39,237 nucleotides of DNA from a virus: IMG/VR virus record IMGVR_UViG_3300027432_000003, positions 1 through 39,237 of that record, one strand, 5' to 3'. Position numbers and translations under genes: made by a program. Shown piece after piece: positions 1-39,237 of this stretch (the stretch's first letter is position 1; the number at the start of each line of letters is the position of its first letter). The notes beneath the pieces are model-generated. The model saw only the letters and a program-made list of their open reading frames with translations, was not told the origin of the DNA and searched no databases.

Positions 1-127
1 GCGGGGAAGAAACCAGACTGCTTGGATTTGCAATGCAAAATGGTGTGCCGAACTGGAACGGAACTACACTCGCCCTACTCTGCGAGGATGGCCCGCGACG
101 TGCCTCCGCTGAATCCGGCGCATTCCC
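1..127. repeat. Terminal direct repeat, copy 1. Identical to 39111-39237, which indicates a circular or circularly permuted assembly of 39,110 bp.
   Basis: Direct comparison of the first and last 127 nt of the window shows they are identical. Confidence 0.95.
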
Positions 128-251
128 GGTGGCTCATGGGCTTCCCGCCCGCATGGGACGCCTGCGGGGTTACGGCAATGCAATCGTCCCGCAAGTCGCG
201 TGCGAATTTATAGGCGCGTGGACTGATACCGCTAACAAGCAGTTAAGGTGA
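1..251 (+). CDS. DNA (cytosine-5)-methyltransferase, 3' part. It continues the ORF that starts at 38474 across the circular junction.
   Basis: The frame of ORF 33..251 is continuous with the 38474 frame after removing the 39110-bp offset. It ends ...[33 protein letters not shown], which is motif X-like (GNAIVP). Stop is TGA at 249-251. Confidence 0.8.
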
Positions 252-2753: not shown

Positions 2754-4276
2754 TGCGAGTTGATAATAACTCCATTTGTGATGTGCATTGTTCCTACCCC
2801 TGTAATATTTAGATTTGTTGTACAACCAAATGATTTCAAAGTCGTAGGTGACGTGCCTACACCCTGAAAAGTTAACCCACCAGCGGATGGGTTTGAATTT
2901 GTCTCAACGATGACTTGTCCATCCGCCCGAAAACAGCCATAAAGGCTCATCAAATTTGTTGTACTGCCTGATGCGCCATTAATATCGCCACTGCCAGAAT
3001 TTGTACAATTAGCGGCGATAAACTCGAATCCATTAAAGGTTACTGGTTGAACCATGTTTACATCTTGTCTATACGCAAAAGCAGGCAACGTGCTGCCTTG
3101 GTCTGAGTACGTCGCAGAACCACCGTTTACAACACACCAGCTTCCTGGAGTGTCAAGATTTCCGATGAAACAATTTATCCCTTTCACGTTCACGCTATTG
3201 ACTCCGGTGAAATTGGTTGAAACAAGTACAAGATTATTAAATGTAATTTGTTCTGGCCCACCCGATGAACATTTAGCCTCGCAGGCTATGGTCTGCGCCT
3301 TGACTCTAAGATTATTCACGGTCATGGAAATATTGTTCGTCATTGCTTCGATGTGAAAACCTTGACCTTGTGAATCAATATCAATGTCAGATACCAGTGA
3401 ATTAGTTATAGGCAGATGGTCCCCCGTTCCATATGCTCCCAGCGGGCATGAAGTGTTGTTTGACCCATCGAGTATCTGCAATGTAAAATCTGACATTTTA
3501 CTATTTGACGCGGGTCTTAATAAACCACCACCAGATGCGACAGCGGTATAATTAGTTAACACCAAATAGCTTCTCAGTTTTCCCATGCCGCAAAAATTGA
3601 CTCCTGAAGGAACAAGCAATCTCACGTTATTAGTGAGTTGATTCACGTTCGTTCCATCCATCAAAATAATTGTCTGCCCAGCTACTGCCATGGCAATCGC
3701 TGCTGATGGAGTTGCAAGAGGGTAGTTCGGTGCATAACCAACGTTTGAATCATTTCCAAAAGGCGAAACGTAAATGTCGAAATTTGTAATCCAGTTGGCC
3801 AGGTTGGTTGACTGGGAGGAATTCCCGCTCGTGTTGTTTGTCGCCCAGCCGGTCAACTGCGCCGCCGGAAGGTTCGTGATCGTAAACTGCGCGTTCGTCT
3901 CGCCGTCAGCGGTGCTTGTGTACGTCCAATATCCATTGGTGGAAGACAGGCTCTTGAGCAGCGCGAGGTTGGTCAACGAATTCCCGTTATAGCTGACGTA
4001 TCGGTTGGTCACTCCAGCCGCCGGAGACACGGTCACGAGCAAGTGACCCGCCTGATTAGTCGCGCCATAAGTCAAGATTCCCGTCGGAATGACTCCGACC
4101 AGCGCGGTCGATTGCACGTTGGTCACGAGGCTGGCGTCGTAAACGCCGCCCGGCCCCTCGATGAGCGCGTTGGTTGCGTTGCCACCCGATCCAGAACCCG
4201 GCCCGGTGACGTTGAGTTGCACGGTTTGCCCGAAGCAGTTCGCCGCGCTCAATAAAAATATGAGTAGTTTTTTCAT
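2750..4276 (-). CDS. Beta-helix (pectate-lyase-like) protein with an N-terminal signal-like sequence. Tailspike or depolymerase candidate.
   Basis: 508 aa, starting MKKLLIFLLSAANCFGQT. The segment YVSPFGNDSNVGYAPNYPLATPSAAIAMAVAGQTIILMDGT resembles the start of right-handed beta-helix domains. The protein is rich in N, T, S and G. Confidence 0.55.
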   Translation of the reverse strand: MKKLLIFLLSAANCFGQTVQLNVTGPGSGSGGNATNALIEGPGGVYDASLVTNVQSTALVGVIPTGILTYGATNQAGHLLVTVSPAAGVTNRYVSYNGNSLTNLALLKSLSSTNGYWTYTSTADGETNAQFTITNLPAAQLTGWATNNTSGNSSQSTNLANWITNFDIYVSPFGNDSNVGYAPNYPLATPSAAIAMAVAGQTIILMDGTNVNQLTNNVRLLVPSGVNFCGMGKLRSYLVLTNYTAVASGGGLLRPASNSKMSDFTLQILDGSNNTSCPLGAYGTGDHLPITNSLVSDIDIDSQGQGFHIEAMTNNISMTVNNLRVKAQTIACEAKCSSGGPEQITFNNLVLVSTNFTGVNSVNVKGINCFIGNLDTPGSWCVVNGGSATYSDQGSTLPAFAYRQDVNMVQPVTFNGFEFIAANCTNSGSGDINGASGSTTNLMSLYGCFRADGQVIVETNSNPSAGGLTFQGVGTSPTTLKSFGCTTNLNITGVGTMHITNGVIINSQ

Positions 4277-36262: not shown

Positions 36263-36370
36263 GCTTGACGCGGGGCAATGGGGTGAGGCATGATTCGCCT
36301 AGATGCAGAACTGTACGGCGAAACCTCGTTCAAAGAATGGGCCTCCCTGTTCTCTGGAAAGTATTTCGTT

Positions 36371-37141
36371 ATGATTGTCATCTATGCAGATGAATCTGGA
36401 ACGCACGACCCAAATGGAAAGCTAACCGGTTCTGCATATCCCATTATCGCCGGATTCGCCGCCAGGAAATCTGTTTGGGATAAATTCTGTGTTGGGTGGA
36501 AGGCTGTTTTGGATAAATATGACGCTCCATACTATCACGGCAGGGAATTAACAACGGCCAGAGTGGCGGTTTTGGAAAACAGAAAAGAAAATAAAGAATT
36601 ATCAAAAAATCCGTACTATATTCGGAAGTGGGATTTTAAAAAAATCGAGTCGTTCAGAAAATCTTTAGCAAAGGTCGCATCCGCAGATGGTAAAATTCCA
36701 ATCGTCGGCGGAATGCATCTAACAAATTTTAACAAAATCAAGGATGAGTTTTCGGATAAAGACCCATATAAATGGGTCATGAGTCATTTTTTCTCTGTGT
36801 ATCACAAGGAAACAGGGCTTCAGTGGGGAAATTTCAAATCGGATGTTACTTTTGTATTTGACCAAAACGAAAAACGAAAATGGGTTAATTCTGTTCATGA
36901 AGTATTCGATGCATACCAAAAAAAAGACCCAAGAATGTCCGGTCCGAATTTTGGTGATAAAAAGAAATTTCCGTTTTGGCCACTTCAAGCTGCCGATTTT
37001 CTTGCCTATCGGATGAGGCAATTGGCGGAGGACAACGATAGTGGCCAATTACAAATTGATGAAGTGGACCGTATTCTTCTTAAGAATCTATATAAAAGCG
37101 CAACAATCATAAACCCTCAACTAAAACCATTCTTAAAATGA
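36371..37141 (+). CDS. DUF3800-family protein (passenger gene)
   Basis: The N-terminal MIVIYADESGTH and the C-terminal FWPLQAADFLAYRM fit the DUF3800 pattern. A sampled line in this gene gave about 32% G+C. The ORF track starts at 36290. Confidence 0.7.
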   Translation: MIVIYADESGTHDPNGKLTGSAYPIIAGFAARKSVWDKFCVGWKAVLDKYDAPYYHGRELTTARVAVLENRKENKELSKNPYYIRKWDFKKIESFRKSLAKVASADGKIPIVGGMHLTNFNKIKDEFSDKDPYKWVMSHFFSVYHKETGLQWGNFKSDVTFVFDQNEKRKWVNSVHEVFDAYQKKDPRMSGPNFGDKKKFPFWPLQAADFLAYRMRQLAEDNDSGQLQIDEVDRILLKNLYKSATIINPQLKPFLK

Positions 37142-37276: not shown

Positions 37277-38236
37277 TTACGCCGCTTGCCACGTCCCTGC
37301 TTCCGGAAGTCCGCCAATGAGTTTGGCGTACTGGAGCCGACGACCAATGATGCCGATGATGCCTTTCAGGAATCTGCCGGAATCAGTGTTCTCACGCTCA
37401 TTAAATCGGAACGCTTGCTCGTCGAGGTAACGAAACAAATGAAAAGGTTCAACGCTGATATATGTCCCGCGAATCCCGCGCTTGAGCAGGCTCCAAAAGT
37501 TTTCCAGCCCGTTGGTGTGGACATTGCCGCGAACATATTCCTTCGCATGGTCAATCGCTTGGTGAACGTAATCCTGACTCAAGCCATTGTACGAGGGAAG
37601 CGCATCGGTGAACACCTGCGAGCCGGTTTCAACTTGCTGGCGAATTTCAGTTTGAAGGATATTGCGGCGAGCTTTTGCAACGTGCTTCAGTTTAATTTTT
37701 CCACCCCGCTGCAAAAGTCCCATGACAATCTCTTTGCCGGTTCCACCCGTTCCGCGACCGCGCTTGCTGCGTTGCGCGTTGTTCATGCTGCGGGCCTTGC
37801 CGCCGATGTAAGTTTCATCCGCTTCCACTTCGCCGGACAGTTTGTCCATGCTGCCGTTCTGCATCGCCAGCCGGATACGGTGAAGCATGAACCACGCTGT
37901 CTTTTGGGTGACGCCCAAGGCGCGGCCAAGCTCGCACGAACTGATTCCGTTCTTCGCGTTCACAATCATCCAGAATGCAGGCAACCATTTGTCCAGCCCA
38001 AGGGGACTGTCCTCGAAAATGGTGCCAACCTTGACGGAGAATTGTTTCTTGGTGTCGCGGCATTTCCAGATTTTGCGCGTCTCAAGGAAGGCGACGTTGG
38101 ACTTTTGGCAGCAAGGACAAACCACCTTGCCGTCAGGCCAGCGAATCGAAACCATGAACTGCAACGCCTTGTCGGCATCCGCGAAGTATTTAATTGCGCC
38201 GCTCAGCGTCTCGGGAAACTCGTTGTTTTCTTTCAT
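37277..38236 (-). CDS. IS1595-family DDE transposase (copy 2)
   Basis: CPCCQKS...KCRDTKKQFSVKVGTIFEDS, GISSCELGRALGVTQKTAWFMLHRIR and VEADETYIGGK. By eye it is only distantly similar to copy 1 at the protein level. Confidence 0.85.
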   Translation of the reverse strand: MKENNEFPETLSGAIKYFADADKALQFMVSIRWPDGKVVCPCCQKSNVAFLETRKIWKCRDTKKQFSVKVGTIFEDSPLGLDKWLPAFWMIVNAKNGISSCELGRALGVTQKTAWFMLHRIRLAMQNGSMDKLSGEVEADETYIGGKARSMNNAQRSKRGRGTGGTGKEIVMGLLQRGGKIKLKHVAKARRNILQTEIRQQVETGSQVFTDALPSYNGLSQDYVHQAIDHAKEYVRGNVHTNGLENFWSLLKRGIRGTYISVEPFHLFRYLDEQAFRFNERENTDSGRFLKGIIGIIGRRLQYAKLIGGLPEAGTWQAA

Positions 38237-38261
38237 GCCCCAAATATCGCATAAAGCCTAT

Positions 38262-38473: not shown

Positions 38474-39237
38474 ATGAACTACTACAACGAACACGACCCG
38501 AAGGCGGCGGCTTGGCTGCGCGAACTAATCCGCGCTGGCGAAATCCCGTCCGGTGAAGTGGACGAGCGTAGCATCGTGGACGTAAAACCAAATGAACTCT
38601 CATCCTACAATCAATGCCACTTCTTCGCCGGCATCGGCGGATGGTCACTCGCTCTTAAACTCGCCGGATGGCCCGATAACAAACCCGTCTGGACTGGCTC
38701 ATGTCCGTGTCAGCCGCTTTCGTGCGCTGGACAGCGAAAAGGCCATGCCGACGAACGACACCTGTGGCCCGCTTTTTACTCGATCATCTCCAAGCGTAAA
38801 CCTCCAGTCGTCTTTGGCGAGCAGGTTGCGAGCAAGGATGGACGCGAATGGCTCGCCGGAATACGCGCTGACTTGGAAGGAGTGGGATATGCCGTCGGGG
38901 CTGCCGATCTGTGCTCTGCGGGCGTCGGAGCGCCGCACGTCAGACAACGACTTTACTGGGTGGCCGACGCCAACCTGTCCAACGAACACCGATGGACACC
39001 AGGCGGGAAACAACCGCTATGTGGACGGGTGCAAACAAATCCTGCGCGGATGGGCAACGCCGCGGGCGCGAGACTGGAAGGGGAATGGAATGAGTATAGC
39101 CCGTGCCAAAGCGGGGAAGAAACCAGACTGCTTGGATTTGCAATGCAAAATGGTGTGCCGAACTGGAACGGAACTACACTCGCCCTACTCTGCGAGGATG
39201 GCCCGCGACGTGCCTCCGCTGAATCCGGCGCATTCCC
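38474..39237 (+). CDS. DNA (cytosine-5)-methyltransferase, 5' part. It runs off the window end and continues at 1..251.
   Basis: Hand translation from ATG 38474 gives MNYYNEHDPKAAAWLRELI..., motif I HFFAGIGGWS, motif IV GSCPCQPLS, motif VI VVFGEQV and motif VIII GAPHVRQRLYWVA. The ORF is absent from the track because it has no stop inside the window. Confidence 0.85.
   Translation, partial: MNYYNEHDPKAAAWLRELIRAGEIPSGEVDERSIVDVKPNELSSYNQCHFFAGIGGWSLALKLAGWPDNKPVWTGSCPCQPLSCAGQRKGHADERHLWPAFYSIISKRKPPVVFGEQVASKDGREWLAGIRADLEGVGYAVGAADLCSAGVGAPHVRQRLYWVADANLSNEHRWTPGGKQPLCGRVQTNPARMGNAAGARLEGEWNEYSPCQSGEETRLLGFAMQNGVPNWNGTTLALLCEDGPRRASAESGAF
39111..39237. repeat. Terminal direct repeat, copy 2 (identical to 1-127)
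   Basis: Direct comparison. Confidence 0.95.

Follow-up and report, generated by a model that had tools for sequence, protein, structure and literature searches.

Whether one stretch of phage DNA can encode a DNA (cytosine-5) methyltransferase in two overlapping reading frames, and whether the product is then one chain or two, is the question raised by a gene lying across the ends of the viral contig IMGVR_UViG_3300027432_000003 from IMG/VR, which was analysed over its whole length of 39,237 nucleotides (nt; hereafter the window). Both frames of this gene are open, selection acts on them segment by segment, and the arrangement is conserved in two deep phage families. The locus probably encodes a two-subunit methyltransferase from a single stretch of DNA in nested frames, with subunit A read in frame 0 and subunit B in frame +1. 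A first-pass annotation of the window had described two long open frames carrying methyltransferase-type motifs and had offered genuine dual coding, recoding into a single chain and compensated indels as possible explanations.

The two ends of the window are identical over 127 nt, positions 39111–39237 being an exact direct repeat of positions 1–127. An end overlap of this kind is the trace of a circular sequence assembled as a linear contig, and the window thus represents a circular assembly of 39110 nt. Both open reading frames (ORFs) cross the junction, and the gene was read from 38474 to 39237 and then on from 128, with the repeat collapsed; a naive join of 39237 to 1 breaks both frames. 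On the collapsed reading, frame 0 extends from the ATG at 38474 to the TGA at 249–251 and encodes 295 amino acids (aa). Frame +1 is open from 38586 to the TAG at 211–213 (245 codons), and its first ATG, at 38592, would yield a protein of 243 aa. The nested ORF lies wholly within the outer one, the overlap amounting to 244 codons or 82% of the outer gene; for two genes on the same strand of a double-stranded DNA phage, such length is unusual. The two long frames, the motif strings quoted for them and their stop codons had been reported correctly by the first-pass annotation. The features of the locus are as follows.

39111–39237, no strand assigned: terminal redundancy, an exact 127-nt overlap with 1–127.
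38474–39237, forward strand: 5' part of the putative subunit A, frame 0, supported by PF00145, phrog_363, the match to M.HhaI, AF2 and Foldseek.
A residues 49–57, 78–80, 114–118 and 155–164: motifs I, IV (PCQ), VI (FGEQV) and VIII, respectively.
A residues ~170–230, frame 0: linker without constraint.
1–251, forward strand: 3' part of A, of which 1–127 duplicates 39111–39237; stop codon TGA at 249–251.
54–56, 66–107 and 162–212: tryptophan W231, beta-hairpin (aa 235–248) and motif X of A, respectively.
A residues 256–271: frame-0 reading of the motif IX DNA, disordered in the AF2 model.
38592–39237, forward strand: 5' part of the putative subunit B, frame +1, starting three codons past the in-frame TAA at 38583–38585.
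B layout: about 66 unconstrained N-terminal residues, a predicted helix (aa 67–86), a predicted hairpin (aa 91–113), then GWPTP and GWATP modules.
38801–38972, forward strand: first doubly constrained stretch, defined by wobble entropy and pairwise differences.
38958–39083, forward strand: putative recognition modules in frame +1, with GWPTP at 38958–38972 and GWATPRARDWKG at 39048–39083.
109–165, forward strand: candidate motif IX in frame +1, the motif itself at 109–156, followed by D-A-C to 165.

Frame 0 carries in one chain the motifs HFFAGIGG (I), SCPCQP (IV), FGEQV (VI) and HVRQRLYWVA (VIII), and motif X of the GNxVP type stands at its C terminus, about 100 motif-free residues after motif VIII. 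The frame +1 reading includes FTGWPTPTCPTNTDGHQAGNNRYVDGCKQILRGWATPRARDWKGNG, YALTWKEWDMPSGLPICALRASERRTSDNDFTGWPTP and GWATPRARDWKG, and then a segment of the LNPxxSxWLMGxPxxW type. Within the stretch 38801–38972, frame 0 encodes motifs VI–VIII (PPVVFGEQV...APHVRQRLYWVA), and the same nucleotides in frame +1 encode LQSSLASRLRA...YALTWKEWDMPSGLPICALRASERRTS...GWPTP. The DNA of the modules at 38958–39083, read in frame 0, is the linker (WVADA..., with GLADA-type repeats in relatives).

The same layout was found in relatives. A nucleotide search (blastn) against phage genomes gave 130 records, with the similarity ending at about 38975, that is, at the end of motif VIII. Xanthomonas phage PhiXhv-28 has both ORFs annotated (1502–2494 and 1584–2489), each as 'DNA methyltransferase'; the annotation of PhiXhv-2 is limited to the +1 ORF (1584–2390, 'cytosine-specific methyltransferase') and omits frame 0, while the annotation of Salmonella phage epsilon15 contains frame 0 only. 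Translation of the PhiXhv and epsilon15 loci revealed motifs I–VIII, a low-complexity stretch and motif X in frame 0, and repeated GW.TP modules with LNP.HSRWLMG.P.AW in frame +1. The three GenBank loci examined have no restriction gene annotated next to the methyltransferase. PhiXhv-2 has fewer GW.TP modules, and a homing endonuclease gene is located directly downstream of its locus.

A scan of IMG/VR yielded at least 567 confirmed relatives, from which 80 loci were kept. In the 78 complete loci, which are 65–79% identical in the N-terminal domain, frames 0 and +1 are both open across the gene, and the third frame is cut into ORFs of 20–110 codons. The nested protein contains between two GW(P/A/Q/V)TP modules, as in the present window, and at least seven, as in the B-type protein P0118; the length of the frame-0 linker tracks the module count, with matching GLADA-type repeats (B-type proteins P0002–P0120; locus L003).

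For the gene of the window alone, the openness of frame +1 is mildly unlikely, 3.5–4.0 stops being expected and the probability of none being 0.006–0.02. To obtain an expectation for the 78 loci, the synonymous codons of frame 0 were resampled in each locus. In alignment columns 35–88 a +1 stop was expected in 25 of the loci, and over columns 35–108 in 47; none was observed in either interval, and frame +1 is stop-free from column 35 onwards in all 78 loci. Upstream of this point, in columns 0–34, +1 stops occur near the expected rate, and all +1 stops of the family are located in columns 4–34. The reverse test, in which the codons of frame +1 were resampled across the variable region of 77 loci, gave a corresponding result for frame 0: 0.05 stops per locus were observed versus 2.57 expected, and 75 loci were stop-free versus 9.3 expected. 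The third frame contains stops as expected in both tests. Stop codons are thus depleted in both directions, which indicates that both frames are kept open by selection, and the double openness across 78 loci is far beyond chance.

The codon positions at which the loci differ show which frame is under selection at the amino-acid level. The third positions of frame 0, which are the second positions of frame +1, have an entropy of about 1.5–1.9 bits in columns 6–108, and of 0–0.3 bits at many four-fold degenerate codons in columns 109–150 (CCT109, TTT113, GTT117, CTC126, GCT131 and TGC-GCT-GCG-GGC-GTC at 146–150). The shares of nucleotide differences per codon position, counted in 2750 pairs of loci, change along the gene as follows.

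Columns 0–108: 60% of differences at frame-0 position 3; frame 0 constrained.
Columns 109–163: 46% at frame-0 position 3; both frames constrained.
Variable region: 60% at frame-0 position 1, the wobble position of frame +1; frame +1 constrained.
W..C.DGK.R segment: 45% at frame-0 position 3; mainly frame 0 constrained.
Motif IX: 51% at frame-0 position 1; frame +1 constrained.
Motif X: 61% at frame-0 position 3; frame 0 constrained.

Selection along the gene therefore passes from frame 0 to both frames, then to frame +1, back to frame 0 at the hairpin, to frame +1 at motif IX and finally to frame 0 at motif X. In motif IX the frame +1 residues L, N, P, W, L, M, G and P are conserved in 89–99% of sequences, and the residues read from the same DNA in frame 0 vary (V/A, D/H). 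G-W-P-T-P is conserved at 90% or more in the alignment of B. The interval of A between motifs VIII and X is without amino-acid-level selection, frame 0 being kept merely stop-free there; likewise, B from its start to column 109 is kept open without amino-acid-level constraint in frame +1. Purifying selection at the amino-acid level thus acts on each frame in segments of its own, and on both frames in two segments that they share. Among the explanations offered by the first-pass annotation, it is genuine dual coding that the stop depletion and this segment-wise selection support, and the codon-wise comparison of homologues that it had suggested as a check locates selection on frame +1 in the variable region and in motif IX.

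The layout extends beyond the close relatives of the window. Viral contigs were scanned for the pattern 'MGxP ... GNAxVP', which joins motif IX to motif X, with gaps of 20–50 nt and of 51–80 nt. The two motifs were out of frame by –1 in 119 of 120 matches in each scan, the commonest gaps being 38 nt (102 matches) and 68 nt (86 matches), respectively. The only in-frame match of the scan with the shorter gaps is an enzyme of actinophage type, L097. The 68-nt gap is characteristic of a second, AT-richer family (L204–L323, for example L204, 4705–5649), with a median G+C content (GC) of 44%. Its motif X frame contains an ORF of median 324 aa, its motif IX frame an ORF of median 261 aa located inside the outer one, and its third frame a median of 24 stops. 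The A chains of the second family are clearly homologous to those of the present one (E 4e-26), and the B chains align weakly and in register over the LTWK hairpin and the xPTP modules (E 8e-4). The register of the overlap is also the same, with IWFVAH over GLLPT. Overall, the nested layout is conserved across families of 36% to 72% GC, and its occurrence in the second family with the same nesting and register indicates that it is old and widespread. The B-type product of the second family carries an N-terminal '..LF..EDS.A' motif and LLPTP modules.

Database searches assign the two products very differently. A matches PF00145 in Pfam at aa 74–167 (E 3.2e-15) and phrog_363 in PHROG over its full length (1.5e-72); its homologues number more than 8000, with PF00145 in all of them, and its profile aligns to motifs I and IV–VIII of M.HhaI and to motifs IV–VIII of the L097 methyltransferase (E 1e-17). 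Profile searches, proposed in the first-pass annotation for both frames and for a hybrid of them, gave a mixed outcome for frame +1: no match in Pfam or NCBIfam, and a match to a PHROG family of its own, phrog_1008 (1.7e-26). The 6567 homologues of B are without a Pfam domain in any case, and the source names of B-type proteins are empty or 'hypothetical protein'. B-type proteins form 23,118 clusters at 50% identity, of which 7,785 match at E ≤ 1e-30. A hand-built hybrid chain scored no better against PF00145, with nothing detected beyond the frame-0 core in Pfam and NCBIfam. No single-frame hybrid was found among the best frame-0 homologues, and the partial-coverage matches among these are all frame-0 proteins with longer linkers.

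The similarity of the frame +1 segment LNPxxSxWLMGxPxxW to motif IX, which the first-pass annotation had noted, gained weak support. The LNP..SRWLMG.P..W segment of B aligns to motif IX (LAVPFVEWMMGFPEGWVDG) of the single-frame L097 enzyme with an hhalign E of 6e-4 and a probability of 28% over 19 columns; the place of the segment ahead of motif X agrees with the assignment, and the statistics are modest.

Models of A and B were each predicted by AF2 with 120 homologues. The model of A has a mean predicted local distance difference test score (pLDDT) of 76 and a predicted template modelling score (pTM) of 0.68. Its pLDDT exceeds 90 for aa 1–170, is below 50 in the linker at aa 183–226, about 72 in the hairpin at aa 235–248, again below 50 at aa 256–271, and 82–95 in the motif X helix at aa 272–295. 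In Foldseek searches the model matches M.HaeIII, M.HhaI, DNMT2 and DNMT1 over about 170–200 columns. In the model of B the best parts are the helix at aa 67–86 and the hairpin at aa 91–113 (pLDDT 70–81), which form the stretch overlapping motifs VI–VIII of A, and the motif IX helix (about 80). Block means are 45–55 for the first ~60 residues and 45–59 from the start to column 109, and pLDDT is below 50 at the residues that overlap the hairpin of A. Predicted order in one frame thus largely coincides with predicted disorder in the other, except for the stretch 38801–38972, which is modelled as ordered in both.

An ATG is present in frame +1 at columns 23–40 in nearly every locus, mostly at column 27, 33 or 37, and many of these codons are preceded by a Shine-Dalgarno-like sequence. 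Eight loci have a +1 stop at column 34, and each of them has an ATG at column 37; in the window these are the TAA at 38583–38585 and the ATG at 38592. We infer that B starts in a variable part of A because a ribosome-binding site could not be accommodated within the catalytic core.

M.EcoHK31I, studied by Lee, Kam & Shaw (1995) and Fung et al. (2006), is a natural precedent for a nested methyltransferase. According to PMC2836561 and PMC3404938, it is a natural two-chain C5 methyltransferase whose beta chain is encoded wholly in another frame of alpha, both chains being required for activity; alpha comprises motifs I–VIII, motif X and the predicted recognition domain, and beta contains motif IX. 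In the same accounts, N-terminal truncation of beta weakens its binding to alpha progressively, and in vivo the effect can be seen once about 37 residues are gone; with fewer than ~40–50 residues removed, some activity is left, and internal Met codons of beta can start translation.

From its anatomy and from this precedent, the locus probably works in the following way. A would be the catalytic large domain, in which motifs I–VIII are followed by a spacer of some 60 residues, a short beta-hairpin and motif X. This spacer is free of sequence constraint of its own and need only be stop-free, so that motif X stays attached to A. B would be started independently at ATG 38592, in the variable part of A, and would consist of an unconstrained N-terminal tail, a conserved helix and hairpin, variable GW(P/A)TP modules and motif IX, which together would form the small, DNA-recognising domain. 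A and B would then assemble non-covalently into the active enzyme, as in M.EcoHK31I.

The translation of B from its own start, the binding of A to B and the need for both chains are suggested by the anatomy of the locus and by M.EcoHK31I. Several observations weigh against this proposal. ATG 38592 is preceded by only a weak Shine-Dalgarno-like sequence (–4.0 kcal/mol), and alternative starts of B are possible at ATG 38745 and at the invariant TTG codons at columns 113 and 117, near 38813 and 38825. B alone is poorly folded by AF2 (mean pLDDT 59, pTM 0.27); Foldseek comparison of its model with solved structures returned only noise (best E 0.5), and its profile found no match among PDB sequences at E up to 1. 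The link of B to motif IX is an alignment of 19 columns with modest statistics. Finally, the literature places the recognition domain of M.EcoHK31I in alpha, unlike the present locus, where the modules are in the nested chain.

Other explanations have to be weighed against the two-subunit enzyme. Frame 0 could be the only functional frame; GC content and codon bias would then account for the +1 ORF as a by-product, or the ORF would be the decaying remnant of an ancestral frame. The gene has 59% GC, and the single-gene probability of an open frame +1 given above is not extreme. This explanation is nevertheless highly improbable, as the wobble pattern reflects purifying selection on frame +1, stops are depleted across the 78 loci, and the +1 ORF is also open in the family of 44% GC, in which the third frame is riddled with stops. 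Two compensating indels, arising from sequencing or assembly error, or a pseudogene would be a further explanation, and single mid-gene indels do occur in the family: three of 81 related loci (L052, L056 and L063) carry one in the variable region. In these loci, which are either pseudogenes, assembly errors or natural rearrangements, the indel moves A and B together, unlike in the window, whose register is the family norm. Since the isolated phages epsilon15 and PhiXhv and hundreds of metagenomic loci have the same register, the compensated indels that the first-pass annotation had considered are excluded, and the chance of an error or a pseudogene is negligible. In L056, for example, frame 0 continues from motifs I–VIII into the GW.TP modules with motif IX, leaving motif X in the third frame.

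Programmed recoding, by which a +1 shift near 38960 and a –1 shift near 160 would produce one chain, alone or beside A and B, is the only way to bring motif VIII, the recognition domain, motif IX and motif X into a single polypeptide; the fixed spacing of motifs IX and X, 38 nt in 102 of 120 pattern matches, is in keeping with it. We consider it very unlikely. Frame +1 is open from column 35 and selected from column 109, about 55 codons upstream of the +1 site and on the nucleotides of motifs VI–VIII; because YWVA and GWPTP are encoded by the same bases, they cannot both be in one chain. Frame 0, for its part, is open across the whole variable region and selected at the hairpin upstream of the –1 site. 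Of 66 loci, 3 have a heptamer of the X_XXY_YYZ type between motifs IX and X, which is thus not conserved; no homopolymeric or known +1 site was found at columns 155–168, no Rfam element was detected in the whole window, and the hybrid sequence, as noted, gained nothing against PF00145. The upstream selection on frame +1, the selected hairpin in frame 0 and the rarity of the heptamer contradict the hybrid chain that the first-pass annotation had assembled by a +1 and then a –1 shift. Nothing specific was found in the literature on phage methyltransferases with frameshifting or dual coding, nor on the peptide strings. It is also conceivable, and in our judgement unlikely, that B is a real protein other than a methyltransferase subunit, for example a DNA-binding or regulatory one, and that A is a minimal enzyme without a recognition domain. 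The lack of matches to B in Pfam, NCBIfam and PDB would fit, as would the presence in A of all the catalytic motifs and motif X; against it, motif IX is missing from A, as is any constraint between motifs VIII and X, B has a segment resembling motif IX where one would expect it with respect to motif X, and the only characterised enzyme with such a gene layout needs both chains.

The two-subunit methyltransferase remains the preferred explanation of the locus, and it seems reasonably likely that a very large group of 'orphan' cytosine methyltransferases from phages has its whole small domain on a separate polypeptide nested in frame +1. With at least 23,000 clusters of proteins from the nested ORF, this group would span a minimum of two deep families, a GC-rich and an AT-rich one. 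Current annotation routinely calls frame 0 a complete DNA cytosine methyltransferase, and the nested ORF is omitted, called hypothetical or given a second 'methyltransferase' label. Prediction of specificity, or cloning and expression, from the annotated protein alone would probably fail or mislead. If the proposal is true, the 'complete' methyltransferases in databases are catalytic subunits only, specificity is set by 'hypothetical' nested ORFs, and M.EcoHK31I is the one characterised member of a general class, with its recognition domain perhaps assigned to the wrong chain.

The stretch of about 55 codons with conserved and, according to the models, ordered structure in both frames makes the locus a strong natural test case for the sharing of sequence between two proteins, and the locus may also show how recognition modules come and go in a gene whose outer frame need only remain open. 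Targeted methylation has already made use of naturally split C5 methyltransferases (PMC2836561), and the family offers thousands of natural variants for such tools.

Upstream of the gene and divergent from it is a transposase gene of the IS1595/ISXO2 type (37277–38236, reverse strand; PF12762, E 1.5e-41, with a zinc ribbon, PF12760). An ORF of 322 aa on the opposite strand (37286–38254, forward) overlaps the transposase gene and is probably spurious. A protein of 283 aa with a DUF3800 domain (E 9e-7) is encoded at 36290–37141 on the forward strand. In a relative of the gene, L079, an insertion of about 470 nt (~3330–3800) lies within the motif IX/X region and contains an HNH endonuclease ORF in frame +1, with frame 0 open; Rfam gave no intron or other match for it. 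The insertion resembles the out-of-frame HNH 'ShiLan' insertions of actinophage methylases (PMC11855218).

Compared with known systems, A follows the pattern of single-chain PF00145 enzymes in having motifs I, IV, VI, VIII and X, without the recognition domain and motif IX that such enzymes carry between VIII and X. M.HhaI, M.HaeIII and the L097 enzyme share with the locus a large domain homologous to A, and a segment of B aligns to motif IX of L097; unlike here, where 38 nt separate motif IX from motif X and the two are in different frames, they carry motif VIII, the recognition domain, motif IX and motif X in one frame. The Rz/Rz1 spanin genes of phage lambda likewise have one gene embedded in the +1 frame of the other, and their products act as a complex. 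Their function is unrelated, and the overlap at the present locus is much longer, with ordered, conserved structure predicted from both frames.

M.AquI is, like the proposed enzyme, a natural two-chain C5 methyltransferase, a heterodimer split in the variable region into alpha with motifs I–VIII and beta with motifs IX–X (cited in PMC3404938). A single cut separates its chains, so that beta comprises the rest of the variable region with motifs IX and X, whereas at the present locus the catalytic chain keeps motif X and the nested one would hold the small domain only. M.EcoHK31I is a much closer match than M.AquI. In both M.EcoHK31I and the present family, in which this is conserved in 78 loci, a small ORF lies entirely inside a large one in another frame, and the large chain has motifs I–VIII along with X and the small chain motif IX, M.EcoHK31I being compared here by its published description. 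It differs in belonging to a restriction-modification system, the present members coming from viral contigs and phage genomes. M.EcoHK31I may be a member of the present family, in which case its recognition domain may have been assigned by position only, or it may be an independent case. No paper extending the nested layout to phage methyltransferases was found in the literature searched; the layout as such is known from M.EcoHK31I, and the interest of the present family lies in its scale, in its implied mis-annotation and in the long doubly constrained overlap.

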